A DNA stretch of 64,000 bases from Leucoraja erinacea (Eukaryota), in the NCBI RefSeq assembly GCF_028641065.1, contig NC_073382.1, positions 3,286,001 through 3,350,000 of the forward strand, read 5' to 3'. Positions 31,424 through 59,600 of the stretch are shown here, in pieces. Numbering within the stretch: the stretch's first letter is position 1; every line of letters starts with the position of its first letter. Made by a program: the position numbers and the translations under genes. A model generated the notes under the pieces. That model saw only the letters and a program-made list of their open reading frames with translations. It was not told the origin of the DNA and ran no database searches.

Positions 31424-31474
31424 AGTTTCATTTTCTATTTTGTGAAACACCGTCACATAAAGTGAAAGTGAAAC
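31424..31474 (+). promoter_or_regulatory. MPEG1-A proximal promoter with two ISRE/IRF elements (AGTTTCATTTTC 31424-31435; AAGTGAAAGTGAAAC 31460-31474)
   Basis: Match to the GAAANNGAAA consensus ~90-140 bp upstream of the ATG. MPEG1 is known to be interferon-inducible in other vertebrates. Confidence 0.7.
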
Positions 31475-31566
31475 ACCCACCTATTAACAGAAACAAGTTT
31501 AACAGCAGGAGTTTACTATCCAGGGGACTTCGTCGGGTGAGGAGCTGAGAGCACTGACCTTTGAGG

Positions 31567-34827: not shown

Positions 34828-35138
34828 TTTTAGATGATCAGCCGTGATCATATTGAATGGCTGTACTGGCTCGAAGGGCTGAATGGCCTATCCCTGCACC
34901 CATTTTTCTATGCTTCTAAATGCTGGAGTAAGGCAGCGCGACAGGCAGCATCTCTGGAGAGAAGGAATGGGTGATGTTTTGGGTTGAGACCCTTCTTCAG
35001 GGGTAGATTGAATTTGAAATTCACGTATTGGAACATAAACAGAAGAGTGGAATTGGATAGGGATATTGAAGAAGCCAAAGACACAATGCTGGAGTTAATC
35101 AGCGGGTCAGGCAGTATCCCTGCAGAGCATGGATAGGT

Positions 35139-35166
35139 GATGTTTCGGGTCGGGACCCTTCATCAG
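35139..35166 (-). ncRNA. Putative minimal hammerhead ribozyme core (CUGAUGA variant)
   Basis: Minus strand: CTGATGA-A-GGGT(CCCG)ACCC-GAAA-CA-TC. Confidence 0.5.
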
Positions 35167-36399
35167 ACTGATTGTAGGGAGGCGGGAAAGAAAGCTGAGA
35201 GAGGAGGGGCAGGATAGAGCATAGCTAATAATGGGGGAACTTGGGCATGGGAGTTGAAATAAGTCATATTGGTTCTGATCAACACAGGCACTGTGACCTG
35301 TTTCTGACTGAAAGGTTTATGTGATTTGAACTGCCTTTTTGCAAACCTGACTGACTTGTTGACAATTTTGTGGTTTCTTTGTGCCCTTTTGAACCTAACA
35401 CAGAACATGATGCATTAACTATCATTGTGACTAACATTACCAGTAATTTTATTAATTAGAGTAACTTACCTGAACTGGTGCTACAAACTGAAAATGTAGC
35501 CATGTAGAATACAACTGTAACATTGAGCTATAAAAACAATAAAATATTAAAATCCAGTTGTGTTTTTTGCTAAATAAAATTGAGCCCGATTTAGTTGTTA
35601 GCATTTTACGACAACCTACTTTGTACATACAGTATCCACCACACTTCAAAGTTGTGACGGATAGGGCCTTGAATGGTGAATAAAAAAAGTAACAAATTTT
35701 TATCTTTACGAGGGTCAGAAGTTTAGAGAGGGTGGTTCAGGTCTTGGGTTTGGAGGTGAAAGGATGAAGTTTTAACCTTAAAATGTCAGTAAGAAGCAGA
35801 ACATCAGTTCAGAAAACAAGTGAAACACATTTTACTCACAGAAGCTGCTTGACCAGTTCTGTCTTTATTGACTTTAGAAAAATCCAGGCTTAACTTTAAT
35901 TCCGTACGCCAGGTGCATAGCTCAGAATTGGGCAGCACGAGTTGCTGCCTTACAGTGCTAGAGACCCGGGTTCGATCCTAACTATGGGTGCTGTCTGTAC
36001 GGAGTTTGTACATTCTCCCCGTGACCTGCATAGGTTTTCTCCGGGATCTCCGGTTTCCTACTGCACTCCAGAGAAGTGCAGGTTAATTGGCTTGGTATAA
36101 TTAAGTTGTCCCAAGTGTATGTAGGATAGCGTTAGTGTGCAGGGATCGCTGGTCAGCGCGGACTCTGTTGGCCGAAGGGCCTGTTTCTGTGTATCCTTAA
36201 ACAAATCTAAAAATTGCTCCATTGTGTCTATTGGTGATGATTTGCCAAATGCCTGTCCTTCCCAGCACCTGAATACTATGGGTCATCTGTAGGATTCACA
36301 GCAAGAACTTGATAAGGCTTCTTTGACAGGGGCTCACAATACTGCAACCTCCAATTCCTAGAAGGACAAGAAGGGCTTCAAAATAACCCAATGAACTAT

Positions 36400-37120
36400 G
36401 GATCAAAAAGCCTATGAGTTGTGGTACAAAAATTAGTGGAGAGGATATGAAGGGTAAGATATGCATACATTTGGGAAGGGTCGATTACGGATATTCTGCA
36501 TGTTTAGTGCGAGGGAGATGGCGTCTCATTAATTTGATTGAGGCTTTGGAAGAAGTAACCCAAGAAGGTTGAGGAGGGCAGGTTGTAGAGATAGTCTAAA
36601 AGGACTTCAGCAAGGCCTTTGATAAGAGTCCACGCACTAATGTGGTCTGGAAGGTTAGATCGCATGGGATGGCATCCAGGGCGAGGTAGCTAACTGCTTA
36701 CACAGTTGGCTTCCTAGTAGGAAGCAGAGGGTTATGGTGTAAAGTTGTGTTGAGGGGTTATCATAAGAAATGTATAAATTCACACGGGGAATAGATGGGA
36801 TATGCCAAGAATGTTTTTCCCAGGGTAGGAGAATCAAGAGATAGAGGGCATAGATTTATGGTGAAAAGGGAAAGATTTAATGGGAACCTGAGGGGCACCT
36901 TTTTCACAGATGGTGCTGGGTATATGGAATAAGTTGCAAGAGGAAGTTGAGGCAGAGACAATAACAACATTTAAGAGATATTTGGAAGTGTACATGGGTA
37001 GGAATGGTTAGGAGGAATATGGAGAAAGCGACGGCAAATGGGATGAGCTTAGATACGGCATGTTGGTCGGCATGAATGGGTTGGGCCCAAGGGCTTGTTT
37101 CAGCGCTGTATTACACTGAG
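36400..37120 (+). mobile_element. Old degenerate CR1 (paralogous copy at ~46200-46920)
   Basis: Remnant DFSKAFDK and a CR1-like 3' region. Confidence 0.6.
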
Positions 37121-38199
37121 AAGGATAGCAGACAAATGGGGATAATGCCATCTCACATTGAATAGTGACTTGTGGTTTTGAACTATATTGCCTTCTTTAC
37201 TGCTGGAATAATGTTCTGGAATTGACTACCTAATGGCATACTTTCACCACACAATCTTCAGCAGATCCTGACGAAAACCAACAATCTCCATTTCAAGGGA
37301 TCACAGAAAACATTGAAGATTGTGACACAGAAGGAAGCCCATCACATTTATGCCATTGTGAAAGATCTGCCCTGTCTATGGTTTTCCTTTGCTTGGACGA
37401 GTGCCCTGCAGTTCATGGTTCTTCAAGTTCATATACATGTCCATTCGAAATGTATTTAGGGCTTCTGCTTCTCCCAGCCTTTCAGGCAGTAAGCTCCAAG
37501 CACCTAGTCAAGAGTGTTTTATTGTTATATGTCCCAGATAGAACAATGAAATTCTTACTTGCAGCTGCACAACAGAATATGTCAACACAGTACACTGTAA
37601 ACAATATAAGAAATGAGAAAAAAAAGTTCAGTGTGTGTTTTCTCTCTATGTGTGTGTATATAATACCCACACATATAAAAATAAACAAACAATAATAGTG
37701 CAGAAAGACACATATACATATATATTATACATACATAGAGTAATAGTGTGATACAGTGTGAAAATAGGCCCTTCGGCCCACCTTGCTCATACTGGCCAAC
37801 ATATCCCACCTCCACTAGTCCCACCTGCCTGAGTTTGGTCCATATTCCTCCAAACCTGTCCTATCCATGTATCTAACTATTTCTTAAATGTCGGGGTAGT
37901 CCCAGCCTCAACTACCTCCTCTGGCAGTGTACTCCATACACCCACCACCCTATGTGTGAAAAAAAACTACCCCTTAAAAAGTTACCTCTTAAAAATATTT
38001 AAAACAAAAAAACATTGAAATCATACTTCTACAATGCACTAAAACATGATTTTAATACATCAATACATCTTTTCCCCTTCAACGTTAAACCTATGTCCTC
38101 TGATCCTCGATTCACCTACTCTGGGCAAGAGACTTTGTGCATCTACCCATCTATTCCTCTCATTATTTTATACATAATATATACATATATATATATCTT

Positions 38200-38590
38200 T
38201 ATGGATCTTATAGAAACTTACAAAATTCTTAAGGGGTTGGACAGGCTAGATGGAGGAAGATTGTTCCCGATGTTGGGGAAGTCCAGAACAAGGGGTCACA
38301 GTTTAAGGATAAGGGGGAAGTCTTTTAGGACCGAGATGAGAAAAACATTTTTCACACAGAGAGTGGTGAATCTGTGGAATTATCTGCCACAGAAGGTAGT
38401 TGAGGCCAGTTCATTGGCTATATTTAAGAGGGAGTTAGATGTAGCCCTTGTGGCTAAAGGGATCAGGAATCAGGAGAAGGCAGGTACAGGATACTGAGTT
38501 GGATAATCAAACATGATCATATTGAATGGCAGTGTAGGCTCGAAGGGCCGAATGGCCCACTCCTGCACCTATTTTCTATGTTTCTATACA
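38200..38590 (+). mobile_element. CR1 3' end (paralogous copy at ~57280-57662)
   Basis: DLIETYKILKGLD...WNxLP peptide plus tail. Confidence 0.85.
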
Positions 38591-40888
38591 CACACACACA
38601 CATATAAAATACTAAAAATAATAGTGCAATAATAACAATAATAGTCTATGTCTTTTCCACTTTACATTATGGAGGCCTCGCATAATTGTGCAGGAAATAA
38701 GTCAAACATCAGCCTCCTTGGTACCAAAGGAAACAACCCTAACTAATCCAATCTTTCCTCAAAAATAAGAATTTCCAGTGGAAAGTAATATTGTAACCCA
38801 TCTGTGCATCTTCTCAATTATAATCAGATCCTTCCTGCAATGTGGTGAACAGAATAAAATGTTGTCAAGGGACTGGCAATAAATGCCACCCTTACCATCT
38901 ACATTCACATCACAGCCATTAATTCTTCAAAGTTTCCTGGCTTTGATTACATATTACATCTTTTTATATTGACCCTCTGAATATTAATAGTGATGCACTG
39001 TTCCCTGCCTTTTATTATCTATTCATTCAGTTGAACAGGCTGAGGTTATTATGTATGCCAAAATAAAATGCACAATGATTAATTAGAAGCAGTGAAATTG
39101 GAAATTCACCAGCGATTATGAGATCTATTTTAGAATCTGCCTTGTCAGCATGTTTAGTTAATGCAACATAAATTATAATTAAAGGATACTTGGTTCCATT
39201 TTATTTTTTATTTTTAATACATTCAAATGAGGAAGTTGAATTACACCATCTCTCAGTTTAATGCTAGTGTAAATGTGCAATCCGTAGTCTGCCTTTCTAA
39301 CTCACACTCTTGGAGATGTGCAAGGCACAAAATGTTTCCTTGGTGCTTTTAAAAACATGTTTTTATCCAAATAAAGTTTTTGAAAATTAAACTAGTTTTG
39401 TTTATCAAAAAAAAAACTTAAGAGAAAAACATACTAAGACATGAGGGGGAAAGATGGGTTGAAAGCACGGTATTTTACCCAGTTGGGGAATCAAGAACCA
39501 TAGGACATAAGTTTAAGGTGGGGGGGGGCAAACATTTAATAGGAAACTGAGGTTCAGTTTCTTTACACAGAAGATGGTGGTGGGTATATGGAACAAGCTG
39601 CTAGAGGAGATACAGTAGCTAAGGCAAGTGTTATAACAACATTTAAAAGACATTTGGCCAGGTACATGGATAGGAAATGTTTTGAGAGATATGGGCCAGA
39701 CATCGGCAGGTGGGACTAGCCTATTTCCATGCTGTATGACTATGACTCAATTATACTTCAGCCGATCAAATGTTACAATTCCTTGGGGACAATCAGTGGA
39801 GTCAGCATCTGTCTGTCCAAATCTCACCAACAACATCACAGTTCTGGATAAAAGAGAAATACAGATGGGGCATTGTGTTCAATTTAGCTGCTACAAGAAA
39901 CAGTAATAGCATTTTCTAAACACTATGCTAGCTGTAAAACACGTTGGCATGTCCAGAGGTTAAGAAGGGCCCTTTTAAAACGTGCTATCAGGCTTCTAAA
40001 TAATCCTTCCATAAGCTAGATCACCTCTGTCCCACTGAGCACATTGGACAGTGCCTATGAACTGATGCGCTACAGTGCAGAGAACTATATTCTGCACTGT
40101 GTCTTCCACTTTGTCACATTAAAGCAATGGGAGCTTTGAAGGCCCCGACCACGAGTGAACATCGGGACCATTAGAAGAAGAGGACTGACTTTGATGCCTT
40201 CCCTCAGAGTGGGGAAACTTTGATTCTGCTGTGTGGGGATGTTTTATGTTGAATTCTATCAACTGTTGTGTTCTTTATTTTTACTGTATGGCTGTATGGT
40301 GATTACATTTCACTGTGCCACTGGCACATGTGACAAATAAATGTATCTTGTATCTATTGTATGCGAGTGTGACTTGTATTTATGTATGTATTGTATCAGA
40401 TCCAATTTATGTATTGTATGAAATCCAAATCTGATCTATTTAGATAGCATGCAAAAATAAAAATTTTCATTGTACCTTACTACACATATTGATAATAATA
40501 AGCCTTAACCTAATTTTCAAGGATAGAATAACTCTTCATATCTAACAATATTGGAAGAGGCTGAAATGATGTTCCACTTTCCAACATAACTGGCCCATGA
40601 GATTAAATTAACTTCTGTTTCTTATATACTGTAAAGGAAACATAGAAAATTTAGAAAATAGGTGCAGGAGTAGGCCATTCGATCCAACTCAGTATCCTGT
40701 ACCTGCCTTCTCTCCATACCCCCTGATCCCTTTAGCAACAAGGACCACATCTAACTCCCTCTTAAATATAGCCAATGAACTGGCCTCAACTACCTCTGAA
40801 ACAGAAGGCATCTCATGTGCAGCTGGTTTGAGCGGTCGATTTCCGACCCCTACCTATTCTCTCTGCACAATGAGTAATGCTTGAAATT

Positions 40889-41020
40889 GAAGTAAAATCA
40901 CTGATACTGTAAGAAGCAATGGGAAACGAGAAGTGACTCAAAGGGTGGACGTGCTTTGGAATTTCCATTTTGTAGTTTCATTTTCTATTTTGTGAAACAC
41001 TCACGGGATTGAAAGAGGAA
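40889..41020 (+). promoter_or_regulatory. MPEG1-B proximal promoter: AP-1 TGACTCA (40934-40940), NF-kB-like TGGAATTTCC (40957-40966), ISRE AGTTTCATTTTC (40974-40985), IRF-Ets composite GAAAGAGGAA (41011-41020)
   Basis: Direct consensus matches upstream of ATG 41115. Confidence 0.65.
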
Positions 41021-41114
41021 CATCCACCAATTAACAGAAACAAGTTTAACAGCAGGAGTTTACTATCCAGGGGACTTCGTCGGGTGAGGAGCTGAGAGCA
41101 CTGGACCTTTGAGG

Positions 41115-43271
41115 ATGTCCCTGGCTTTGATCCCCGTCTTTCTCTTCGTTTTCTCGGTAAGAGCGACGGACTACAGGTTTCGAGAGCCAAGGAGGGATGG
41201 CTTGACTGAGTGCAGAAAAGCTCAAAGTTTGACTGCTCTCGAGGTTGTGCCGGGAGGCGGCTGGGACAACTTGAGGAACCTCGACCGAGGTCGAGTGATG
41301 AACATCAGCTACTCTCTGTGCAAACTTACCGAGGACGGGAAATACTTCATCCCAGACCAAGTCTACGTGGTGCCCCAGAAGCAGACTAACATGGATATCG
41401 TGTCGGAAATCATCACCAGCTGGATGGACTACAAAAGCTCCACCAGTGCCTCAGTCAACGCTGATGTATCCTACCTCTCTATCCTGAATGCAAAGTTCTC
41501 CGCCAGCGTTGAGAGGGTCAAGACCCGACAGGTGCAGGACAGCAGCACGACCACTAGAATCCAGGTGAGGAACTTGATATACAAGGTCAAATCCGTGCCC
41601 GATTTCCAGCTGGACCAAGACTTCAAACAACAGCTGATTGAGATTGCCAATTACATTGAGAACAACCAGACTAAAGCTGCCGAATATTTCGCTCAGTTGC
41701 TGGTCCTCAACTACGGGACTCACGTGTTGACGGGTATCGATGCCGGGGCGAGCCTGGTGCAGGAAGACCAGATCCGTTCTAGCTTTGTGTCCGAAAGCTG
41801 GAGTCGAAAATCCAGCATCGGAGCGTCGGCCGGAGTCACCTTCTTCCAGACGGTGAACGTGGGCCTGGACACACAGTGGCAGAGCACCGACCAGTTCACC
41901 CGGCATTACATGAGCAACAGGACGCACTCGAGCATCGAGAGCCACGGCGGGGTTCCCTTTTACCCTGGAATCACCCTGCAGAAGTGGCAGCAGGAGATCT
42001 CCAACCAGCTGGTGGCCATCGACAGGAGCGGGCGGCCCCTCAACTTCTTTATCCACCCACTCAACGTGCCCGAGCTGCCCGGGCCCACGGTGGCCAAGCT
42101 CACCCTGGCCATCGAGAGGGCCATCGCTCTCTACTACACCGTCAACACTCACCCGGGCTGCGTGGACATCAACTCGCCCAACTTCAACTTCCAGGCCAAC
42201 CTCGACGACGGCTCCTGCCAGGGGGACGGCACGAATTTCACCTTCGGCGGCGTTTACCAGGAGTGCGCCCCGGTGTCGGGGCCGGACGCCCAGTCCCTGT
42301 GTGCCGGCCTGGACCAGAGCAACCCCCTGACCGGGGCCCACAGCTGTCCCGCTGGATACTCGGCCATACACCTGCACTCGGGCGTCCAGGAGGAGGGTAG
42401 GAGCCATTACGAGTGTAACCGCCGTTGCCACACGTGTTGGCTGCTGGCGACATGTTGCGACGACGTGTGCGGCGACGGCTACTACGTGAGCAAGGCCCGC
42501 TTTGAGGCCTACTGGTGTGCGGCGACGCCCAGCCTTGTCCTGCCCCAGAACTCGGGCTACCTCTTCGGCGGCCTGTACGGCCGAGTGTCCAGCAACGAGC
42601 TGACCCAAGGCCGCTCCTGCCCCGCGGCCTTCTACCCGCTGCGCCTCCTCCAGCACCTGCGGGTCTGCGTCAGCCAAGACTACGAGATGGGCTTCCGCTA
42701 CTCGGTGCCCTTCGGCGGCTTCTTCAGCTGCGAGGCGGGAAACCCGTTGGCTGCCCGGGCCCCAGGCCCAGACTCAGGCGCCGACCCCAAGCGTTGTCCC
42801 GGCGGCTACAGCCAGCACCTGGCTGCCATCAGCGATAGCTGCCAAGTCCTCTTCTGCGTCAAGTCCGGCTCCTTCAACGACCTCAAACTGGCCCCCATCA
42901 ACCTGCCGCCGTTCGCTCAGCCCCCCCTGCTCACCAAGGGCTCCACAAACACGGTGATGGTCATGTCCGCGTACCAGGAGCCTTGGGTGAAGGACAAGGT
43001 CACCAACCAGTGGAAGGTGGTCCCCATCTCAGACGCCCGCCGTATATTTGACGGGGAGAATTCCTCCAGAGGGGCTGGGGCGGCAGCTGGCATCTCCATT
43101 GCCATAATCCTGGTCCTGGTTGGCATTCTCTGCCTTGTCTTCTTTATCAAGAAGCGACGGAGGCAGCGCGGATACCAAGCTCTGGCTGTAGAACATGAAG
43201 TGATATCCACAACCAACTCTGACTCTGAGATCAACACACTTGGCTCTCCTGATCCCCACACAGATGCCTGA
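41115..43271 (+). CDS. MPEG1: Macrophage-expressed gene 1 / perforin-2, paralog B (718 aa, single-exon ORF)
   Basis: Same architecture as paralog A, intact frame, about 17 aa differences counted by eye. Confidence 0.97.
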   Translation: MSLALIPVFLFVFSVRATDYRFREPRRDGLTECRKAQSLTALEVVPGGGWDNLRNLDRGRVMNISYSLCKLTEDGKYFIPDQVYVVPQKQTNMDIVSEIITSWMDYKSSTSASVNADVSYLSILNAKFSASVERVKTRQVQDSSTTTRIQVRNLIYKVKSVPDFQLDQDFKQQLIEIANYIENNQTKAAEYFAQLLVLNYGTHVLTGIDAGASLVQEDQIRSSFVSESWSRKSSIGASAGVTFFQTVNVGLDTQWQSTDQFTRHYMSNRTHSSIESHGGVPFYPGITLQKWQQEISNQLVAIDRSGRPLNFFIHPLNVPELPGPTVAKLTLAIERAIALYYTVNTHPGCVDINSPNFNFQANLDDGSCQGDGTNFTFGGVYQECAPVSGPDAQSLCAGLDQSNPLTGAHSCPAGYSAIHLHSGVQEEGRSHYECNRRCHTCWLLATCCDDVCGDGYYVSKARFEAYWCAATPSLVLPQNSGYLFGGLYGRVSSNELTQGRSCPAAFYPLRLLQHLRVCVSQDYEMGFRYSVPFGGFFSCEAGNPLAARAPGPDSGADPKRCPGGYSQHLAAISDSCQVLFCVKSGSFNDLKLAPINLPPFAQPPLLTKGSTNTVMVMSAYQEPWVKDKVTNQWKVVPISDARRIFDGENSSRGAGAAAGISIAIILVLVGILCLVFFIKKRRRQRGYQALAVEHEVISTTNSDSEINTLGSPDPHTDA

Positions 43272-43901
43272 GTCCCACTCCCTCCTTGATCCACAACTGC
43301 AATAAGGATTGCAGAGCCTTCCTACATTCACCCATACAACCGGCAGAGAATACCCAATAACATTAAGCAGTACGTTTATGTTCACAATAGACAAAACAAT
43401 AGACAATAGGTGCAGGAGTAGGCCATTTGGCCCTTCGAGCCAGCACCGCCATTCACCGTGATCATGGCTGATCATCCCCATTTTTTCACCTTTATTATTG
43501 TCACGTGTACTGAGGTACAGTGAGAAGCTTTGTTTTCCAATGTTTGGATCATGCTTTCCGATCAAATCATAATACTATACCTAAATATAATCAAGCCAAA
43601 CTCTAGTACAACAGGCACAGTGAAGGGAAAGATACGGAGTGCAAAATATGGGGAGAGAATATGGGGATATGGGATATGGGGGGATATGGGGAGAAGGCAG
43701 GAACAGGGTACTGATTGGGGATGATCAGCCATGATCACATTGAATGATGGTGCTGGCTCGAATGGCCTAATCCTGCACCTATTGTCTATTGTCTATAATA
43801 ATTGAATGAACAGGGGTAATCTTTAGACTGTATTGGTTATTTAAGGAGAAACAGAAAGAGAGTAAAATGTGTGGGAAAGAACTGCAGATGCTGGTATATA
43901 A

Positions 43902-44130
43902 CCATATAACAATTACAGCACGGAAACAGGCCATCTCGACCCTGCTAGTCCGTGCCGAACACATAATCTCCCCTAGTCGCATATACCTGCGCTCAGACCA
44001 TAACCCTCCATTCCCTTCCCATCCATATAACTATCCAATTTATTTTTAAATGATAAAAACGAACCTGCCTCCACCACCTTCACTGGAAGCTCATTCCACA
44101 CAGCCACCACTCTCTGAGTAAAGAAAACCA
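43902..44130 (-). mobile_element. CR1 3' fragment specific to duplication unit B
   Basis: FFTQRVVAVWNELP...FKNKLD peptide and accatata tail. Absent at ~34338. Confidence 0.75.
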
Positions 44131-44242
44131 TATAAACAAGATACATACAAAATAGGCACAAAAAGAGTTAGATTTAGCTCTTATGGCTAAAGGAATCAAG
44201 GGACATGGTGGAAAAAGCAGGAACGGGGTAATGATTTTAGAT

Positions 44243-44621
44243 CAGTGGTTCCCAACGTGGGGCGTACGCCCCACAGGGGGGCAATTTGATTTTTAAGCGG
44301 GGCAATTGAGCGCGACTGAGGAGGTCTGGGTCCAAATTTTCGATTTTTAATTTTTTTGGATTTTCCATCAGGTAAACATATGTAGTTTATGTTTCAGATG
44401 TTATTTTGAGTAAATATTTTTTGGGGGTAAAAAAGGTCTTTATTGTGTAGTTATTACATAATCACCGCGCCATCGCTCTTCATGCATGTCGCACGGAGCG
44501 CGCGAGGTCAAGGGAGTTCACTTTTTAAATGATAAGAATTATATATCACCACATGGGGGGGGCATCAAGATTTTAGAGGTGATTAGATGGGGCTTGGCCA
44601 AAAAAAGGTTGGGAACCACTG
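44243..44621. mobile_element. hAT/Charlie-like MITE (duplicated copy)
   Basis: Same TIR and TSD as 34447-34827, so it predates the duplication. Confidence 0.9.
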
Positions 44622-47328
44622 TTTTAGATGATCAGCCGTGATCATATTGAATGGCTGTGCTGGCTCGAAGGGCTGAATGGCCTACCCCTGCACCCATTTT
44701 TCTATGCTTCTAAATGCTGGAGTAAGGCAGCGCGACAGGCAGCATCTCTAGAGAGAAGGAATGGGTGATGTTTTGGGTTGAGACCCTTCTTCAGGGGTAG
44801 ATTGAATTTGAAATTCACGTATTGGAACATAAACAGAAGAGTGGAATTGGATAGGGATATTGAAGAAGCCAAAGAAAGAGACAATGCTGGAGTTAATCAG
44901 CGGGTCAGGCAGTATCCCTGCAGAGCATGGATAGGTGATGTTTCGGGTTGGGACCCTTCATCAGACTGATTGTAGGGAGGCGGGAAAGAAAGCAGAGAGA
45001 GGAGGGGCAGGATAGAGCATAGCTAATAATGGGTGAACTTGGGCATGGGGGTTGAAGTAAGTCATATTGGTTCTGATCAACACAGGCACTGTGACCTGCT
45101 TCTGACTGAAAGGTTTATGTGATTTGAACTGCCTTTTTGCAAACCTGACTTTGACTTATTGACAATGTTGCTGTTTCTTTGTACCCTTTTGAACCTAACA
45201 CAGAACATGATGCATTAACTATCATTGTGACTAACATTACCAGTAATTTTATTAATTAGAGTAACTTACCTGAACTGGTGCTACAAACTGAAAATGTAGC
45301 CATGTAGAATACGACTAACATTGAGCTATAAAAACAATAAAATATTAAAATCCAGTTGTGTTTTTTGCTAAGTAAAATTGAGCCAGATTTAATTGTTAGC
45401 ATTTTACGACAACCTACTTTGTACATACAGTATCCACCACACTTCAAAGTTGTGATGGATAAGGCCTTGAATGGTGAATAAAAAATAGTAACAAATTTTT
45501 ATCTTTACGAAGGTCAGATGTTTAGAGAGGGTGTTTCAGGTCTTGGGTTTGGAGGTGAAAGGATAAAGTTTTAACCTTAAAATGTCAGTAAGAAGCAGAA
45601 CATCAGTTCAGAAAACAAGTGAAACACATTTTACTCGCAGAAGCTGCTTGACCAGTTCTATCTTTATTGACTTTAGAAAAATCCAGGCTTAACTTTAATT
45701 CCGTATGCCAGGTGCATAGCTCAGAATTGGGCAGCACGAGTTGCTGCCTTACAGTGCTAGAGACCCGGGTTCGATCCTAACTACGGGTGCTGTCTGTACG
45801 GAGTTTGTACATTCTCCCCGTGACCTGCATAGGTTTTCTCCGGGATCGCCGGTTTCCTACTGCACTCAGGAGAAGTGCAGGTTAATTGGCTTGGTATAAT
45901 TAAGTTGTCCCAAGTGTATGTAGGATAGCGTTAGTGTGCAGGGATCGCTGGTCAGCGCGGACTCTGTTGGCCAAAGGGCCTGTTTCTGTGTATCTTTAAA
46001 CAAAACTAAAAATTGCTCCATTGTGTCTATTGGTGATGATTTGCCAAATGCCTGTCCTTCCCAGCACCTGAATACTATGGGTCATCTGTAGGATTCACAG
46101 CAACAACTTGATAAGGCTTCTTTGACAGGGGCTCACAATACTGCAACCTCCAATTCCTAGAAGGACAAGAAGGGCTTCAAAATAACCCAATGAACTATGG
46201 ATCAAAAAGCCTATGAGTTGTGGTACAAAAATTAGTGGAGAGTATATGAAGGGTAAGATATGCATACATTTGGGAAGAGTCGATTACGGATATTCTGCAT
46301 GTTTAGTGCGAGGGAGATGGCGTCTCATTAATTTGATTGAGGCTTTGGAAGAAGTAACCCAAGAAGGTTGAGGAGGGCAGGTTGTAGAGATAGTCTAAAT
46401 GGACTTCAGCAAGGCCTTTGATAAGAGTCCACGCACTAATGTGGTCTGGAAGGTTAGATCGCATGGGATGGCATCCAGGGAGAGGTAGCTAACTGCTTAC
46501 ACAGTTGGCTTCCTGGTAGGAAGCAGAGTGTTATGGTGTAAAGTTGTGTTGAGGGGTTATCATAAGAAGTGTATAAATTCACATGGGGAATAGATGGGAT
46601 ATGCCAAGAATGTTTTTCCCAGGGTAGGAGAATCAAGAGATAGAGGGCATAGATTTATGGTGAAAAGGGAAAGATTTAATGGGAGCCTGAGGGGCACCTT
46701 TTTCACAGATGGTGCTGGGTATATGGAATAAGTTGCCAGAGGAAGTTGAGGCGGAGACAATAACAACATTTAAGAGATATTTGGAAGTGTACATGGGTAG
46801 GAATGGTTAGGAGGAATATGGAGAAAGCGACGGCAAATGGGATGAGCTTAGATACGGCATGTTGGTCGGCATGAATGGGTTGGGCCCAAGGGCTTGTTTC
46901 AGCGCTGTATTACACTGAGAAGGATAGCAGACAAATGGGGATAATGCCATCTCACATTGAATAGTGACTTGTGGTTTTGAACTATATTGCCTTCTTTACT
47001 GCTGGAATAATGTTCTGGAATTGACTACCTAATGGCATACTTTCACCACACAATCTTCAGCCGATCCTGACGAAAACCAACAATCTCCATTTCAAGGGAC
47101 CACAGAAAACATTGAAGATTGTGACACAGAAGGAAGCCCATCACATTTATGCCATTGTGAAAGATCTGCCCTATCTACCGCCTTCCTTTGCTTGGACGAG
47201 TGCCCTGCAGTTCATGGTTCTTCAAGTTCATATACATGTCCATTCGAAATGTATTTAGGGCTTCTGCTTCTCCCAGCCTTTCAGGCAGTAAGCTCCAAGC
47301 ACCTAGTCAAGAGTGTTTTATTGTTATA

Positions 47329-48421
47329 CTAGACCAAGTGCAGACCCGTTGGGTCTGTTTCCCCAACAGCGTTTGCGGGGGGGGGGGGGAGTAGGGGCTG
47401 CGGCATCACACTCAAATTAACCACCCCCAAACTCACAGGTGGGGGGAGGGGGGGGGGGGGGGGGGTGAGAAGAGGGGAGGAGGGGAGGGGGAGAGAGGAG
47501 GAGGAAACATGACAGATTTGGGAGGGAAAGGAGAGCGGGGTAGGGGGTGAGAGAGGGGGATGGGGAGAGAGATGGGGGGGAGGGGAGGATGGGGAGGGGG
47601 GGAGGAGGGGGGGAGGGGGGTGGAGAGAGACGGTAAAGAGTGGGGAGTGAGAGGGAGGAGGAGAGGGTAGGGGGAAGGGGGCGGGTGGAGAGAGGGAAGG
47701 GGGGGGGGTAGAGAGGGAAGGGGGGGTGAGGGAGAGAGGGAGAGGGGTGAGGGAGAGGGGGGAGGGAGGAGGGGAGAGGGGGGGAGGAAGAGAGGGAAAC
47801 ATAGAAATTAAGTGCAGTAGTAGGCCATTCGGCCCTTCGAGCGTGCACCACCATTCAATATGATCAAGGATGATCATCCAACTCAGTATCCTGTACCTGC
47901 CTTCTCTCCATACCCCCTGATCCCTTTAGCCACAAGGGCCACATCTAACTCCCTCTTAAATATAGCCAATGAACTGGCCTCAACTACCTTCTGTGGCAGA
48001 GAATTCCAGAGATTCACCACTCTCTGTGTGAAAAATGTTTTTCTCATCTCGGTCATAAAGGATTTCCCCCTTATCCTTAAACTGTGACCCCCTGTTCTGG
48101 ACTTCCCCAACATCTGGAACAATCTTCCTGCATCTAGCCTGTCCAACCCCTTAAGAATTTTGTAAGTTTCTATAAGATCCCCCCTCAATCTTCTAAAATC
48201 TAGCGAGTACAAGCCAAGTCTATCCAGTCTTTCTTCATTTGAAAGTCCTGACATCCCAGGAATCAGTCTGTTGAACCTTCTCTGTACTCCCTCTATGGTC
48301 TGTTTCCCCAACGGCGTTTGCGGGGGGGGGGGGGGGGGGGGGTGAGAAGAGGGGAGGGAGGAGGAGGAAACGGGATAGATTTGGGAGGGAAAGGAGAGCG
48401 GGGTAGGGGGTGAGGGATGGG

Positions 48422-48456
<35 letters not shown>

Positions 48457-51400
48457 AGAGGGGGAAAGAGTGGGGAGGGAGGAGGAGGAGAGGGGGTAGC
48501 GGGAGTGATGGAAGAGGGACAGAGGGATAGGGGAAGGGTGTGGGGGGGAGAGAAGGTAGGGGGTGGGGTAGAGAGGGAAGGGGGTGGGGGGGGAGAGGGG
48601 ATGGGAGAGGGGTGAGGAGTGGGGGAGGAGAGGAGAGAGTGGGAGAGAAGTGGAAGAGTGGGGGAGGGAGGGAGGGTAGAGGGTAGCGGGAGTGGTAGAA
48701 GAGGGACAGTAGAGGGGTAGGGGGAAGGGGTGGGTGGTAGAGAGGGTGGGGGTGGTGGGAGAGAGGGAAGGGGGGTGGGGGAGAGAGATGGGTGGCAGAG
48801 GGAGATATGTGAGGAGAGGGACACATAGAAACATAGAAATTAAGTGCAGTAGTAGGCCATTCGGCCCTTCGAGCCTGCACCATTCTCCATTCAATATGAT
48901 CACGGCTGATAGAAACATAGAAACATAGAAATTAGGTGCAGGAGTAGGCCATTCGGCCCTTCGAGCCTGCACCGCCATTCAATATGATCATGGCTGATCA
49001 TCCAACTCAGTATCCCGTACCTGCCTTCTCTCCATACCCCCTGATCCCCTTAGCCACAAGGGCCACATCTAACTCCCTCTTAAATATAGCCAATGAACTG
49101 GCCTCAACTACCCTCTGTGGCAGAGAGTTCCAGAGATTCACCATTCTCTGTGTGAAAAAAGTTCTTCTCATCTCGGTCACAAAAGATTTCCCCCTTATCC
49201 TTAAGCTGTGACCCCTTGTCCTGGACTGGACTTCCCCAACATCGGGAACAATCTTCCTACATCTAGCCTGTCCAACCCCTTAAGAATTTTGTAAGTTTCT
49301 ATAAGATCCCCTCTCAGTCTCCTAAATTCTAGAGAGTATAAACCAAGTCTATCCAGTCTTTCTTCATAAGACAGTCCTGACATCCCAGGAATCAGTCTGG
49401 TGAACCGTCTCTGCACTCCCTCTATGGCAATAATGTCCTTCCTCAGATTTGGAGACCAAAACTGTACGCAATACTCCAGGTGTGGTCTCACCAAGACCCT
49501 GTACAACTGCAGTAGAACCTCCCTGCTCCTATACTCAAATCCTTTTGCAATGAAAGCTAACATACCATTCGCTTTCTTTACTGCCTGCTGCACCTGCATG
49601 CCTACCTTCAATGACTGGTGTACCATGACACCCAGGTCTCGCTGCATCTCCCCCTTTCCCAATCGGCCACCATTTAGATAATAGTCTGCTTTCCCGTTTT
49701 TGTCACCAAAATGGATAACATCACATTTATCCACATTATACTGCATCTGCCAAACATTTGCCCACTCACCCAGCCTATCCAAGTCACCTTGCAGTCTCCT
49801 AGCATCCCCCTCACAGCTCCCCCCCCCCTTCCATACCCCCTGATCCCTTTAGCCACAAGGGCCACATCTAACTCCCTCTTAAATATAGCCAATGAACTGG
49901 CCTCCACTACCTTCTGTGGCAGAGAGTTCCAGAGACTCACCACTATCTGTGTGAAAAATGTTTCCCTCATCTCAGTACTAAAGGATTTCCCCTTTATCCT
50001 TAAACTGTGTCCCGCGTGTCCTGGACTTCCCCAACATCTGGAACAATCTTCCTGCATCAGACAAATGCAATTCAGGACTTTTCACTTCACAAGCAAATCA
50101 GAAATGACAGTTAGTGAAGAATTTGAATAATCGCTGAGCGTTCTCTATGGCAACAATGTATTTGAGCATTGGGCATTGTGACATCACACGATGGAATGTT
50201 CACCATGGGCTGTGGCTCCTGCAAAGGCATATGTAAATGAATCCATTCCGATTGGCCATCTGTGAGCATCGGGCATTGTGACATCACACGATGGAACGTT
50301 CACAGGAGGCTGCTTGTGTGGATGAGAATCCAGTTTCTTTTTGAAACATTGAGGTGGTGGGGGTGTAGGATTTGATTAAAAAAGCGTACTCAAACACGAC
50401 GAAATGTAACGAGGAGCGGATACTTAGAAAGAAAAGCGAAATCTCTACCGAAATGGAAAAGACGTCGGCGATCCTGCGTCCGGTTTCGGAGTTGCGGAGC
50501 GTCAAAGGAAGAAACGCGCGGCGGACGCCGTACGGCGGCAGGCGGACTGATTTGAGTTTTATATATATACTAGACCAAGTGCAGACCCGTTGGGTCTGTT
50601 TCCCCAACAGCGTTTGCGGGGGGGGGGTTGGGGGAGGGGGAGTAGGGGCTGCGGCATCACACTCAAATTAACCACCCCCCAAACTCACAGGTGGGGGGGG
50701 GGGGGGGGGGGTGGGGGTGAGAAGAGGGGAGGGAGGGGAGAGGAGGAGGAGGAAACATGACAGATTTGGGAGGGAAAGGAGAGCGGGGGCGGGGTAGGGG
50801 GTGAGAGAGGGGGATGGGGGAGAGAGAGATGTGGGGGAGGGGGGGATGGGGAGGGAGTGGAGGAGGGGGAGAGAGGGGTGGAGAGAGAGACGGGAAAGAG
50901 TGGGGAGTGAGAGGGAAGAGGAGAGGGGGGAGGGGGGGAAGGAGGGGGCGGGGGGGAGAGAGGGGGGAAGGGGTGGGGTAGAGAGGGAAGGGGGGGTGAG
51001 GGAGAGAGGGGGAGGAGGGGGAGGGGTGAGGGGAGAGGGGAGGAGAGGGGAGAGGGGGTGGGAGGAGAGGGAAACATAGAAATTAAGTGCAGTAGTAGGC
51101 CATTCGGCCCTTCGAGCCTGCACCACCATTCAATATGATCAAGGATGATCATCCAACTCAGTATCCTGTACCTGCCTTCTCTCCATACCCCCTGATCCCT
51201 TTAGCCACAAGGGCCACATCTAACTCCCTCTTAAATATAGCCAATGAACTGGCTCAACTACCTTCTGTGGCAGAGAATTCCAGAGATTCACCACTCTCTG
51301 TGTGAAAAATGTGTTTCTCATCTCGGTCCTAAAAGATTTCCCCCTTATCCTTAAACTGTGACCCCCTGTTCTGGACTTCCCCAACATCTGGAACAATCTT

Positions 51401-54400
51401 CCTGCATCTAGCCTGTCCAACCCCTTAAGAATTTTGTAAGTTTCTATAAGATCCCCCTCAATCTTCTAAAATCTAGCGAGTACAAGCCAAGTCTATCCAG
51501 TCTTTCTTCATTTGAAAGTCCTGACATCCCAGGAATCAGTCTGGTGAACCTTCTCTGTACTCCCTCTATGGTCTGTTTCCCCAACGGCGTTTGCGGGGGG
51601 GGGGGGGGGGGAGAAGAGGGGAGGGGAGGAGGAGGAGGAAACGGGATAGATTTGGGAGTGAAAGGAGAGCGGGGTAGGGGGTGGGGGTGAGGGATGGGGA
51701 GAGAGCTTTGGGGGAGGGGGGAGGGGGGAGGGGAGGAGGGGAGCAGGGTGGGATGGGGAGAGAGGGGTGGATGGAAAGAGGGGAAAGAATGGGGAGGGAG
51801 GAGGAGAGGGGTAGCGGGCGGGAGTGATGGAAGAGGGACAGGGGTCTAGGGGAAGGGTGTGGGGGGAGAGAAGGTAGGGGGTGGGGTAGAGAGGGAAGGG
51901 GGTGGGGGGGAGAGGGATGGGAGAGGGGTGAGGAGAGGGGGAGGAGACAGTGGGAGAGAAGTGGAAGAGTGGGGAGGGAGGGAGGGGTAGAGGGGTAGCG
52001 GGAGTGGTAGAAGAGGGACAGACGGGTAGGGGGAAGGGGGCGGTGGTAGAGAGGGAAAGGGGGTGGGAGAGAGAGAGATGGGTGGCGGGGGAGAGAGAGA
52101 TGGGTGGCATAGGGAGAGGGGTGAGGAGAGGGACACATAGAAACAGAAATTAAGTGCAGTAGTAGGCCATTCGGCCCTTCGAGCCTGCACCATTCTCCAT
52201 TCAATATGATCACGGCTGATAGAAACATAGAAACATAGAAATTAGGTGCAGGAGTAGGCCATTCGGCCCTTCGAGCCTGCACCGCCATTCAATATGATCA
52301 TGGCTGATCATCCAACTCAGTATCCCATACCTGCCTTCTGTCCATACCCCCTGATCCCCTCAGCCACAAGGGCCACATCTAACTCCCTCTTAAATATAGC
52401 CAATGAACTGGCCTCAACTACCCTCTGTGGCAGAGAGTTCCAGAGATTCACCACTCTCTGTGTGAAAAAAAAAGTTCTTCTCATCTCGGTTTTTAAGGAT
52501 TTCCCCCTTATCCTTAAGCTGTGACCCCCTTGTCCTGGACTTCCCCAACATCGGGAGCAATCTTCCTGCATCTAGCCTGTCCAACCCTTTAAGAATTTTG
52601 TAAGTTTCTATAAGATCCCCTCTCAATCTCCTAAATTCTAGAGAGTATAAACCAAGTCTATCCAGTCTTTCTTCATAAGACAGTCCTGACATCCCAGGAA
52701 TCAGTCTGTTGAACCGTCTCTGCACTCCCTCTATGGCAATAATGTCCTTCCTCAGATTTGGAGACCAAAACTGTACGCAATACTCCAGGTGTGGTCTCAC
52801 CAAGACCCTGTACAACTGCAGTAGAACCTCCCTGCTCCTATACTCAAATCCTTTTGCAATGAAAGCTAACATACCATTGGCTTTCTTTACTGCCTGCTGC
52901 ACCTGCATGCCTACCTTCAATGACTGGTGTACCATGACACCCAGGTCTCGCTGCATCTCCCCCTTTCCCAATCGACCACCATTTAGATAATAGTCTGCTT
53001 TCCCGTTTTTGCCACCAAAATGGATAACCTCACATTTATCCACATTATACTGCATCTGCCAAACATTTGCCCACTCACCCAGCCTATCCAAGTCACCTTG
53101 CAGTCTCCTAGCATCCTCCTCACAGCTAACACTGCCCCCCAGCTTAGTGTCATCCGCAAACTTGGAGATATTGCCTTCAATTCCCTCATTCAGATCATTA
53201 ATATATATTGTAAATAGCTGGGGTCCCAGCACTGAGCCTTGCGGTACCCCACTAGTCACTGCCTGACATTGCTGATTCTATGGGTGAGATGCCAGTTTTT
53301 TTTTTTGAAATATTGGGAGGGGGGGGGAGAAGGAGTTGATTAAAAATGTCTACATAAATACGACAAAATGTAATCAGGAGTTTCTATAAGATCCTCCCTC
53401 AATCTTCTAAAATCTAGCGAGTACAAGCCGAGTCTATCCAGTCTTTCTTCATATGAAAGTCCTGACATCCCAAGAATCAGTCTGGTGAACCTTAACCATA
53501 TAACCATATAACAATTACAGCACGGAAACAGGCCATCTCGACACTTCTAGTCCGTGACGAACACGTATTCTCCCCTAGTCCCATATACCTGCACTCAGAC
53601 CATAACCTTCCATTCCTTTCCCGTCCATATAACTATCCAATTTATTTTTAAATTATAAAAACGAACCTGCCTCCACCACCTTCAATGGAAGCTCATTCCA
53701 CACAGCCACCACTCTCTGAGTAAAGAAGTTCCCCCTCATGTTACACCTAAACTTCTGTCCCTTAATTCTCATGTCATGTCCCCTTGTTTGAATCTTCCCT
53801 ACTCACAGTGGGAAAAGCTTATCCACATCAACTCTGTCTATCCCTCTCATCATTTTAAAGACCTCTATCAAGTCCCCCCTTAACCTTCTGCGCTCCAAAG
53901 AATAAAGCCCTAACTTGTTCAACCTTTCTCTGTAACTTAGTGGCTGAAACCCAGGCAACATTCTAGTAAATCTCCTCTGTACTCTCTCTATTTTGTTGAC
54001 ATCCTTCCTATAATTAGGCGACCAAAATTGTACACCATACTCCAGAATTGGCCTCACCAATGCCTTGTACAATTTTAACAGTACATCCCAACTTCTATAC
54101 TCAATGCTCTGATTTATAAAGGCCAGCACACCAAAAGCTTTCTTTACCACCCTATCTACATGAGATTCCACTTTCAGGGAACTGTGCACAGTTATTCCCA
54201 GATCCCTCTGTTCACCTACATTCTTCAATTCCCTACCATTTACCATGTAATTCCCTACCATTTACCATGTAAGAGGAGAGAAGTGGGAGAGTGGGGAGGA
54301 AGGGGTAGAGAGACTGGTGGAAGAGGGACAGAGTGGTAGGGGAAGGGGGTGGGGGTAGAGAGGGAAGGGGGGTGAGGGAGAGAGAGAGGGGAGAGGGGAG

Positions 54401-56608
54401 AGAGAACATAGAAAATAGGTGCAAGTGCAGAGTAGGCCATTCGGCCCTTCGAGCCTGCACCGCCATTCAATATGATCATGGCTGATCATCCAACTCAGTA
54501 TCCTGTACCTGCCTTCTCTCCATACCCCCTGATCCCTTTAGCCACAAGGGCCACATCTAACTCCCTCTTAAATATAGCCAATGAACTGGCCTCAACTACC
54601 TTCTGTGGCAGAGAGTTCCAGAGATTCACCACTCTCTGTGTGAAAAAATGTTCTTCTCATCTCGGTTTTTAAAGGATTTCCCCCTTATCATCAAAGACCC
54701 ACACCATCCTGGCCACAAAAAAGCGTACTCTGACAGAATGACAGTTAGTGAAGAATTTGAATAATCGCTGAGCGTTCTCTATGGCAACAATGTATTTGAG
54801 CATTGGGCATTGTGACATCACACGATGGAATGTTCACCGGGGCTGTGGCTCCTGCAAAGGCATATGTAAATGAATCCATTCCGATTGGCCATCTGTGAGC
54901 ATCGGGCATTGTGACATCACACGATGGAACGTTCACAGGAGGCTGCTTGTGTGGGTTAGAATCCAGTTTTTTTTTTGAAATATTGAGGTGGCAGGGGGGG
55001 GGGTGTAGGATTTGATTAAAAAAGCGTACTTAAACACGACGAAATGTAACGAGGAGCGGATACTTAGAAAGAAAAGCGAAATCTCTACCGAAATGGAAAA
55101 GACGTCGGCGATCCTGCGTCCGGTTTCGGAGTTGCGGAGCGTCAAAGGAAGAAACGCGCGGCGGACGCCGTACGGCGGCAGGCGGACTGATTTGAGTTTT
55201 ATATATATAAAGATAAGATACTAGACCAAGTGCAGACCCGTTGGGTCTGTTTCCCCAACAGCGTTTGCGGGGGGGGGGGGGGGGTGGTGGGGAGGGGGAG
55301 TAGGGGCTGCAGCATCACACTCAAATTAACCACCCCCCAAACTCACAGGTGGGGGGGGGGGGGGGGGGGGGGGGTGGTGAGAAGAGGGGAGGGAGGGGAG
55401 AGGAGGAGGAGGAAACATGACAGATTTGGGAGGGAAAGGAGAGCGGGGTAGGGGGTGAGAGAGGGGGATGGGGAGAGAGATGTGGGGGAGGGGGGAATGG
55501 GGAGGGAGGGGGGGGAGGGGGGGGAGAGGGGTGGAGGGAGAGAGACGGGAAAGAGTGGGGAGTGAGAGGGAGGAGGAGAGGGGTAGGGGAAGGGGGCGGG
55601 TGGAGAGAGGGAAGGGGGGTGAGGGAGAGAGGGAGAGGGGTGAGGGAGAGGGGTGAGGAGAGGGAGAGGGGTGAAGAGAGGGAAACATAGAAATTAAGTG
55701 CAGTAGTAGGCCATTCGGCCCTTCGAGCCTGCACCACCATTCAATATGATCAAGGATGATCATCCAACTCAGTATCCTGTACCTGCCTTCTCTCCATACC
55801 CCCTGATCCCTTTAGCCACAAGGGCCACATCTAACTCCCTCTTAAATATAGCCAATGAACTGGCCTCCACTACCTTCTGTGGCAGAGAATTCCAGAGATT
55901 CACCACTCTCTGTGTGAAAAATGTTTCCCTCATCTCAGTACTAAAGGATTTCCCCTTTATCCTTAAACTGTGTCCCGCGTGTCCTGGACTTCCCCAACAT
56001 CTGGAACAATCTTCCTGCATCAGACAAATGCAATTCAGGACTTTTCACTTCACAAGCAAATCAGAAATGACAGTTAGTGAAGAATTTGAATAATCGCTGA
56101 GCGTTCTCTATGGCAACAATGTATTTGAGCATTGGGCATTGTGACATCACACGATGGAACGTTCACCGGGGCTGTGGCTCCTGCAAAGGCATATGTAAAT
56201 GAATCCATTCCGATTGGCCATCTGTGAGCATCGGGCATTGTGACATCACACGATGGAACGTTCACAGGAGGCTGCTTGTGTGGATGAGAAACCAGTTTTT
56301 TTTTGAAATATTGAGGTGGTGGGGGGGGGGATGTAGGATTTGATTAAAAAAGCGTACTTAAACACGACGAAATGTAACGAGGAGCGGATACTTAGAAAGA
56401 AAAGCGAAATCTCTACCGAAATGGAAAAGACGTCGGCGATCCTGCGTCCGGTTTCGGAGTTGCGGAGCGTCAAAGGAAGAAACGTGGCGGACGCCATACG
56501 GCGGCAGGCGGACTGATTTGAGTTTTATATATATAAAGATATATATAAGATAAGAAAGATAAGATATAAGATAAGATATATAGATAAGATAAGATAAGAA
56601 AGATAAGA
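47329..56608 (-). mobile_element. Composite/tandem non-autonomous Helitron array (units 47329-50569, 50570-55220, 55221-56608) with captured CR1 fragments and G-rich tracts
   Basis: On the minus strand it starts A|TC, ends with hairpin CAGACCC-aac-GGGTCTG plus 8 nt plus CTAG|T, and has no TSD. The empty site attgttatA^Tgtccc is present in unit A (~37521-37535). Confidence 0.88.
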
Positions 56609-59600
56609 TGTCCCAGATAGAACAATGAAATTCTTACTTGCAGCAGCACAACAGAATATGTCAACACAGTACACTGTAAACAATATAAGAAATGAGAAAA
56701 AAAAGTTCAGTGTGTGTTTTCTCTCTATGTGTGTGTATATAATACCCACACATATAAAAATAAACAAACAATAATAGTGCAGAAAAACACATATACATAT
56801 ATATTATACATACATAGAGTCATAGTGTGATACAGTGTGAAAATAGGCCCTTCGGCCCACCTTGCTCATACTGGCCAACATATCCCACCTCCACTAGTCC
56901 CACCTGCCTGAGTTTGGTCCATATTCCTCCAAACCTGTCCTATCCATGTATCTAACTATTTCTTAAATGTCGGGGTAGTCCCAGCCTCAACTACCTCCTC
57001 TGGCAGCGTACTCCATACACCCACCACCCTATGTGTGAAAACAAAACTACCCCTTAAAAAGTTACCTCTTAAAAATATTTAAAACAAAAAAACATTGAAA
57101 TCATACTTCTACAATGCACTAAAACATGATTTTAATACATCAATACATCTTTTCCCCTTCAACGTTAAACCTATGTCCTCTGATCCTCGATTCACCTACT
57201 CTGGGCAAGAGACTTTGTGCATCTACCCATCTATTCCTCTCATTATTTTATACATAATATATACATATATATATATCTTTATGGATCTTATAGAAACTTA
57301 CAAAATTCTTAAGGGGTTGGACAGGCTAGATGGAGGAAGATTGTTCCCGATGTTGGGGAAGTCCAGAACAAGGGGTCACAGTTTAAGGATAAGGGGGAAG
57401 TCTTTTAGGACCGAGATGAGAAAAACATTTTTCACACAGAGAGTGGTGAATCTGTGGAATTCTCTGCCACAGAAGGTAGTTGAGGCCAGTTCATTGGCTA
57501 TATTTAAGAGGGAGTTAGATGTAGCCCTTGTGGCTAAAGGGATCAGGAATCAGGAGAAGGCAGGTACAGGATACTGATGATCAGCCATGATCATATTGAA
57601 TGGCGGTGTAGGCTCGAAGGGCCGAATGGCCTACTCCTGCACCTATTTTCTATGTTTCTATACACACACATATAAAATACTAAAAATAATAGTGCAATAA
57701 TAACAATAATAGTCTATGTCTTTTCCACTTTACATTATGGAGGCCTCGCATAATTGTGCAGGAAATAAGTCAAACATCAGCCTCCTTGGTACCAAAGGAA
57801 ACAACCCTAACTAATCCAATCTTTCCTCAAAAATAAGAATTTCCAGTGGAAAGTTATATTGTAACCCATCTGTGCATCTTCTCAATTATAATCAGATCCT
57901 TCCTGCAATGTGGTGAACAGAATAAAATGTCGTCAAGGGACTGGCAATAAATGCCACCCTTACCATCTACATTCACATCACAGCCATTAATTCTTCAAAG
58001 TTTCCTGGCTTTGATTACATATTACATCTTTTTATATTGACCCTCTGAATATTAATAGTGATGCACTGTTCCCTGCCTTTTATTATCTATTCATTCAGTT
58101 GAACAGGCTGAGGTTGTTATGTATGCCAAAATAAAATGCACAATGATTAATTAGAAGCAGTGAAATTGGAAATTCACCAGCGATTATGATATCTATTTTA
58201 GAATCTGCCTTGTCAGCATGTTTAGTTAATGCAAGATAAATTATAATTAAAGGATACTTGGTTCCATTTTATTTTTTATTTTTAATACATTCAAATGAGG
58301 AAGTTGAATTACACCATCTCTCAGTTTAATGCTAGTGTAAATGTGCAATCCGTAGTCTGCCTTTCTAACTCACACTCTTGGAGATGTGCAAGGCACAAAA
58401 TGTTTCCTTGGTGCTTTTAAAAACATGTTTTTATCCAAATAAAGTTTTTGAAAATTAAACTCTAGTTTTGTTTATCAAAAAAAAAAAACTTAAGAGAAAA
58501 ACATACTAAGACATGAGGGGGAAAGATGGGTTGAAAGCACGGTATTTTACCCAGTTGGGGAATCAAGAACCATAGGACATAAGTTTAAGGTGGGGGGGGA
58601 GCAAACATTTAATAGGAAACTGAGGTTCAGTTTCTTTACACAGAAGATGGTGGTGGGTATATGGAACAAGCTGCTAGAGGAGATACAGTAGCTAAGGCAA
58701 GTGTTATAACAACATTTAAAAGACATTTGGACAGGTACATGGATAGGAAATGTTTTGAGAGATATGGGCCAGACATCGACAGGTGGGACTAGCCTATTTC
58801 CATGCCGTATGACTCTATGACTCAATTATACTTCAGCCGATCAAATGTTACAATTCCTTGGGGACAATCAGTGTAGTCAGCATCTGTCTGTCCAAATCTC
58901 ACCAACAACATCACAGTTCTGGATAAAAGAGAAATACAGATGGGGCATTGTGTTCAGGTTAGCTGCTACAAGAAACAGTAATAGCATTTTCTAAACACTA
59001 TGCTAGCTGTAAAACACGTTGGCATGTCCAGAGGTTAAGAAGGGCCCTTTTAAAACATGCATTTCTGATTTTAAATGTCCAGCTTCAGATAGTGGATAAG
59101 CATCACAAAAAAAGGCCAATTTTAATAGTAAACGATTAAAAACATTTCAAGTGATAAATGAAATCGTTATTTTCTAATACGCGTTGTTCTCAACTTTCCC
59201 CACAACAACTAGTTTCTGTCCTTCTGTTTTATTTCACCATCACATTCTTGGCTAGGTTAGATTTACTGTTGAGCCCTTGGTATAATTGGTAGCATAAGTG
59301 GTAATTTCTCTTTCAAGCTGACCTGAAATGCAAGTTAGTATATTTTCCTCTGTTTTTAATTTTATTTGTGCCTGGGTTCATGTTAATCTGTTTCTTACAT
59401 AATGATTTTAATCTTATAGGGCTCAACAGTAAATGCATATAGCTTTATCTAATTTTTCTTATTCTTCCCGTGTTTTCCAGTTGATCAAAGCACAACATTT
59501 ATGGGTTTCAATCAGTCAACTGGGGTCTAGGAAAGAGCGGTCACGTCGCGGCCCTGTTTTCACCAATCTTTCCACCACCACACACAAGAAGCGCAAGACA

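Follow-up and report, generated by a model that had tools for sequence, protein, structure and literature searches.

The window, i.e. the whole stretch of 64,000 nucleotides of Leucoraja erinacea that was analysed, carries a 9,280-bp insertion that is made of three different members of one family of Helitrons, which are copy-and-paste DNA transposons. They were probably stacked by serial insertion of each newcomer into the left end of the previous one and not in one rolling-circle round. The family inserts before a T with AAAA 9 bases further on, both at unrelated targets and inside the left ends of Helitrons.

A tandem duplication pairs positions 29718-39985 (paralogous unit A) with 39983-59060 (paralogous unit B), and each unit contains one copy of the immune gene MPEG1/perforin-2. 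The features of the insertion site are the following:

47329..56608, minus strand: the complete insertion, a composite non-autonomous Helitron of 9,280 bp, with its empty site at 37529^37530 and no target duplication
37505..37560, plus strand: empty site in paralogous unit A, a high-copy repeat that is uninterrupted there
47305..47328, minus strand: target of the insertion, A^TATAACAAT-AAAA, which fits the T-N8-AAAA register and belongs to the tail of a high-copy repeat
47329..47357, minus strand: right end, with a 7-bp hairpin (47341-47357) followed by CACTTGGTCTAG; copies at 50570 and 55221
31558-33723: MPEG1/perforin-2 copy A, intact, single exon, matching the MPEG1 structure with E 6e-237
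41088..43271, plus strand: MPEG1/perforin-2 copy B, intact, single exon, MACPF, 4 kb from the insertion

At 37529^37530, the sequence of unit A is gttatA^Tgtccc; in unit B, this A and this T are separated by 9,280 bp, without any duplicated letter flanking the insert when compared with the empty unit A. On the minus strand, the insert starts with TC at 56608 and ends at 47329 as CAGACCC-AAC-GGGTCTG-CACTTGGTCTAG, the 7-bp stem of the hairpin lying 12 nt before the end of the element; the folding energy of this hairpin is, taken alone, not significant (z -1.46). In the 2.19-Gb genome, the 29-bp right end has 4,973 exact copies versus 0 for its reversed control, and a T directly follows CTAG at all 30 fetched loci. 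The uninterrupted form of the repeat tail is the common form in the genome; the insertion is therefore a gain in unit B. Comparison of L062 with L197 provided a second empty site, that of a two-unit array in another repeat (L098 also ends in this repeat), and both empty sites show the register. The empty site in unit A bears out the claim of the first-pass annotation that 9,280 bp were inserted at A^T without target-site duplication. The TC start and hairpin-CTAG end that it reported are present as well, as are the CTAG ends at 47329, 50570 and 55221 and the hairpin-truncated ends (at 48297 and 51570), and the genome-wide search for the right end gave the copies mentioned above.

Between the paralogous units, 152 substitutions are counted in 9,307 bp (about 1.6%), with further indels, and MPEG1 copies A and B have 17 differences in 718 aa, whereas the Helitron modules are 0.3-1.0% substitutions away from their nearest copies elsewhere. 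This is consistent with an insertion later than the gene duplication and supports the earlier proposal of Helitron activity after a young duplication. Paralogue B alone also holds, at 43896-44125, 230 bp of the second CR1 type described below.

An assembly artefact, in which the MPEG1 units would be two haplotypes placed in tandem or the array would be mis-joined, is very improbable. It would fit with the assembled contigs of public runs, none of which bridges the empty site or the left junction with 31 letters on each side, those over the joint between repeat tail and Helitron being short pieces with mismatches or other flanks. However, the paralogues are separated by the divergence and indels given above, the unit junctions recur at many loci and the uninterrupted state is that of a high-copy repeat. 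Even if the units were haplotypes, the insertion would still be real, merely polymorphic.

The insertion belongs to the non-autonomous Helitron1 (HLE1) elements, of which it displays every feature tested. Like the Helitron1 elements Helraiser/Helibat of bats, it starts with TC, ends with a hairpin and CTAG and lies at A^T without duplication (PMC11417382, PMC4778049, PMC5876387; articles are cited here and below for those parts of them that were accessible). The outer left end of the window starts with TC, as do 18 of 21 outer left ends of the family. Membership of Helitron2/Helentron was considered and rejected, these elements having terminal inverted repeats and a T^T target (PMC11417382), versus an A^T site and a CTAG end in the window.

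The autonomous RepHel partner that the first-pass annotation proposed to look for was found. A Helitron_like_N profile search gave 78 matches, several of them in open frames of 1,290-1,739 aa. One copy, on contig C38, has a stop-free RepHel frame of 1,739 aa flanked by the left core and the right end that are found in the window, the left end of this element being 96.5% identical to the window left core over 427 bp. It displays PIF1 and Rep domains (Pfam) and intact HUH, Y2, Walker A and Walker B motifs. A sister RepHel copy matches the Helraiser structure 7lcc (E 1e-224), and another four copies share 97-99% identity over about 7 kb. These near-identical intact frames suggest a young, possibly active vertebrate Helitron and, judging from the shared ends, the window insertion was probably mobilised by a C38-type transposase. 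Together with the ends, the empty site and the copy number, this partner bears out the Helitron identity that had been proposed. The RepHel copies are located at L093/L094 (G000:C38), L095, L097, L098 and L099, many of them on small contigs.

The insertion is composed of three units, which share a left core and a right end:

47329..50569, minus strand: unit 1, 3,241 bp, likely the first to land
50570..55220, minus strand: unit 2, 4,651 bp, which holds the second CR1 type and whose left end retains a partial stub stack
55221..56608, minus strand: unit 3, 1,388 bp with the left stack counted in, likely the most recent arrival
56066..56535, minus strand: left-end core, T-N8-AAAA-CTCAAATCAGTCC..., about 470 bp with 30 CpG; copies at 54737-55220 and 50103-50569
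48297..48345, minus strand: internal right end truncated in its hairpin and joined to CR1; a second one at 51570

A 27-mer of the left core has 299 exact copies in the genome. The units were searched in 86 records, i.e. 85 loci picked for Helitron ends or transposase and the window itself. Unit 1 is found over its full length, terminal bases included, at 11 places in other loci and unit 2 is found whole at L064, L143 and L174, whereas unit 3 has looser matches only; the whole three-unit chain was found at no unlinked site among these 86 records. Unit 1 is a chimera made of a left part of the unit 3 type and a right part of the unit 2 type (matches 1-740 and 752-3241). Its local birth from units 3 and 2 was considered and rejected, its parts being nearer to copies elsewhere. 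Indeed, units 1 and 2 are each closer to copies elsewhere than to their neighbours (0.3-0.4% versus 2.1% for module S2, 0.4% versus 1.0% for module S3). Unit 1 was therefore imported, its modules being 0.3-1.0% from copies elsewhere versus 1.0-2.1% from the window's own units.

The first-pass annotation had described the insertion as a head-to-tail concatemer, and had noted neither the absence of TC at the internal junctions nor the 73-bp stack at the outer left end; the units also differ in length and content. In the rolling-circle sense, in which a circle copied round more than once would be inserted as a head-to-tail chain, this description does not hold and such an origin is extremely improbable. 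The units are indeed in head-to-tail order, and tandem arrays have been cited as support for rolling-circle copying (PMC5876387, PMC12001565). However, circles of Helraiser have precise CTAG-TC joints (PMC4778049), whereas neither of the two internal junctions of the window does: CTAG is followed by TATATATATAAAA in one and by TATCTTATCTTTATA in the other. Furthermore, the three units are unlike in size and origin. The same contrast extends to other arrays of the family, in which adjacent units differ in 44 of the 48 sampled pairs and are near-identical in 4. Among the first 100 of the 178 junctions listed, counted by hand, 77 have AAAA exactly at +10 and 8 start with TC; these 8 speak for rolling-circle copying and, with the 4 near-identical pairs, leave room for some true concatemers. 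Arrays were sampled by their junctions among the first contigs, and the classification of junctions is rough, with 3 called in the window where the true number is 2.

Serial stacking is thus the probable origin of the array, because the three pieces differ and are not linked by the joints expected of a rolling-circle chain. Unit 1 would have landed in the repeat tail after the MPEG1 duplication, unit 2 would then have cut the left end of unit 1 at the register and unit 3 would have landed in the stub stack. This order (1, 2, 3) is deduced from the logic of the sequence.

The register itself is observed far beyond the window. Among the 7,138 right ends of the genome that precede a T, AAAA lies at +10 to +13 in 2,711 and at +14 to +17, its position if an intact left end followed the right end, in 43. 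The register is not restricted to insertions into Helitrons. Once Helitron-like targets and loci L113-L142, picked for the +14 register, had been dropped, 57 of 204 sites were retained as non-Helitron targets, a set that may still contain a few left-end types. In 37 of these 57 targets, AAA begins at +9 to +11, versus 4-5 in shifted windows, and G is depleted (35/684 versus 110). Therefore, the register does not result only from self-insertion. In addition, 21 insertions in the genome lie at the same nucleotide of the same repeat tail as that of the window; their right-end types are varied and their flanks are unrelated in 12 of the 12 fetched. Helraiser also displays an AT-rich preference 3' of its insertions (PMC4778049); here, the bias takes the form of a positioned motif, T-N8-AAAA, that matches the left end.

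The left end of the family, TC..TATATATAT-AAAA, itself includes this target a few bases inwards, and 14 of 30 unselected right ends run into a left end of Helitron type. Because left ends carry the target pattern, TC is missing from the junctions and stubs led by TC accumulate at the outer left end. The RepHel transposase would thus have a single preference for its target and for its own left end. It could be argued instead that the transposase nicks its donors at T-N8-AAAA, thereby producing circles or chains without TC whose units are later mixed by recombination. In some related left ends, TC stands exactly at the register, so that nick and register can coincide, but TC lies upstream of the register in 18 of 21 outer left ends, the same register is found at unrelated targets and neighbours come from different subfamilies, which makes this alternative very unlikely.

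Several other elements can be mentioned. Left ends of other types (AAAA-CTCTCATCTTG, -GTCTGATCTTG and -CTCTGTTCTTG; L003, L027, L069, L078, L115, L122, L245-L274) also carry TCTA stacks and are interrupted at this same register; for most of them, no right end was seen within 1.5 kb. An older Helitron pair of the same family and register, with a mutated right end, is located around 18900-19495 of the window, on the minus strand. A mini-element of 42 bp (L234:1470-1512, in element orientation) has a TC start and a CTAG end without hairpin, and lies at the same repeat-tail site as the insertion of the window.

A cut at the register would leave the first 2-11 bases of the old left end upstream of the newcomer. 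The outer left end of the window indeed starts with a stack of 73 bp, composed of 13 TC-led pieces:

56536..56608, minus strand: left-end stub stack, 12 stubs and an innermost TCTT (TCTTA, TCTT, TCTATATA...), which forms an (AAGAT)n-like microsatellite on the plus strand

At least one extra stub is found in 16 of 21 unselected outer left ends. The stubs (403 TCTA, 25 TCATA, 23 TCT and 18 TCTTA) mirror the left-end variants, the concordance between stub type and left-end type being not significant (p 0.11). In 59 of 65 arrays, the stubs equal or outnumber the TC-less junctions (rho 0.31, p 0.012): the two numbers are the same in 8 of the 65, stubs are fewer in 6 and they are usually far more numerous. 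The motif (TCTA)4-N9-AAAA-S-T occurs 824 times in the genome versus 6 times for the reversed control. A hairpin-CTAG end lies within 1.5 kb at only 16 of 30 (TCTA)n-register loci, and 39 of 55 (TCTA)n runs precede a left end, these runs coming from a scan of 100 loci that were all picked on Helitrons.

It is therefore likely that new copies cut old left ends, leaving TCTA or TCTTA stubs that pile up as GATA-type microsatellites. As stubs usually far exceed junctions, insertion alone does not make the stacks; the surplus could come from slippage, from carry-over when the outer TC is nicked or from array collapse. We regard as unlikely that the arrays are serial but that their TCTA stacks are ordinary slippage products or old microsatellites that were targeted, and not stubs. 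Many stacks consist of one long unbroken (TCTA)n run that may reach 30 repeats or more, far above the number of units, and single elements carry stacks too, as slippage or older microsatellites would have it. Nevertheless, the stacks are one-sided: TC follows the right end in only 1 of 30 unselected right ends, which argues against old microsatellites as targets. They also hold TCT, TCTT, TCTTA and TCATA, i.e. the left-end variants minus the register, and small cases (L180, L187, L194 and L199) fit exactly with an origin from stubs.

More globally, the left end might act as a self-renewing landing pad, driving a ratchet that builds mixed arrays, chimeric subfamilies and GATA/TCTA microsatellites at hundreds of loci; we put this forward tentatively, at a little less than an even chance.

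Self-insertion and cargo of retroelement origin are known in kind, whereas the fixed register and its scale were not found in print. In Fusarium, Chellapan et al. proposed self-insertion for nested Helitrons and doubled 5' ends, one copy lying 2 bp upstream of the 5' end of another and one triple being left undecided between self-insertion and rolling circle (PMC5148889). These cases are few, are of Helitron2 type and display duplications of 31-85 bp, whereas here Helitron1 elements show hundreds of junctions at one register and stubs of 2-11 bp that form microsatellites. For tandem transposons of Drosophila, McGurk and Barbash favoured double insertion at a preserved preferred target and not rolling circle (PMC5932611). 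However, this preserved target is a target-site duplication, whereas here there is no duplication and the left end is a renewed target. In bat Helitrons, Thomas et al. described retroposed sequences and retrotransposons that are carried inside and further amplified (PMC4224331); here the cargo differs in consisting of CR1-type 3' ends, one piece of which lies within the autonomous master. The accessible parts of PMC13286980, PMC13085455, PMC11417382 and PMC6544945 contain nothing on a fixed register. In the part of the literature covered, no report of a fixed register or of TCTA repeats born from stubs was found. Likeness between target and left end or same-family clustering may already be in print; maize Helitrons reportedly cluster by family and orientation.

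These data bear on the choice of targets by Helitrons and on the origin of their tandem arrays, for which they provide a simple sequence test: TC present at the joint or not, units alike or not. If the ratchet proposed above is true, many Helitron arrays taken elsewhere as rolling-circle concatemers would be serial insertions, recognizable by the missing TC. The positioned target motif lends itself to verification in the genomes of bats, plants and insects as well as in cell assays, and the stubs would offer a transposase-driven origin for a common microsatellite.

About 4.9 kb of the insertion consists of pieces that we take to be CR1-like, a label adopted from the first-pass annotation:

47796..48298, minus strand: CR1-type 3' piece with its tail, adjoining the purine tract; the same module is found in the autonomous master
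51071-51571, 55682-56021, 54399-54695, 48819-48910 and 52131-52220, minus strand: pieces related to 47796..48298
48912..49818, minus strand: younger CR1-type 3' piece, 97-98% to free copies
52222-53271, minus strand: longer twin of the piece at 48912..49818, with an RVT_1 match (E 4e-11)
53497..54260, minus strand: second CR1-type 3' piece, with 8 other copies within 1.5% substitution

The two hallmarks of this cargo, a reverse-transcriptase 3' region (RVT_1 match) and a short-repeat tail (tails read), are both present, and the second CR1 type that had been reported in unit 2 is indeed found at 53497-54260. The breakpoints recur at unlinked copies, as had been predicted: the 30-bp junction between truncated hairpin and CR1 has 133 exact copies in the genome, and 10 of 13 breakpoint probes match other loci among 20. 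In the earlier proposal of captured CR1 cargo, the word captured is weakened, as the autonomous master already possesses the 500-bp CR1 tail that adjoins the purine tract and most CR1 pieces have intact tails, like ordinary retrotransposed copies. The pieces likely entered the lineage via retrotransposition and short-homology recombination and would now be copied passively. In the autonomous element (L093), about 16 bp are common to the Helitron core and to CR1 where the two join, which suggests an attachment of CR1 by short homology.

The further claim that such copies would be miscounted as retrotransposition is also weakened, since 365 tails in the genome carry the variant that marks Helitron-borne CR1 copies, a lower bound because other cargo pieces have the common tail, versus 77,149 exact matches for the common free CR1 tail. 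Among the marked copies sampled, a Helitron end lies within 1.5 kb in 25 of 30 and the tail is joined to the purine tract in 29 of 30. The miscount of CR1 due to Helitron copying is thus small, about 0.5% by these counts and of the order of 1%.

Besides these elements, the window (577-4672, 4680-5219 and 10007-13217) contains two further young tandem duplications (96-97%) and a coding piece of a NIPA magnesium transporter.
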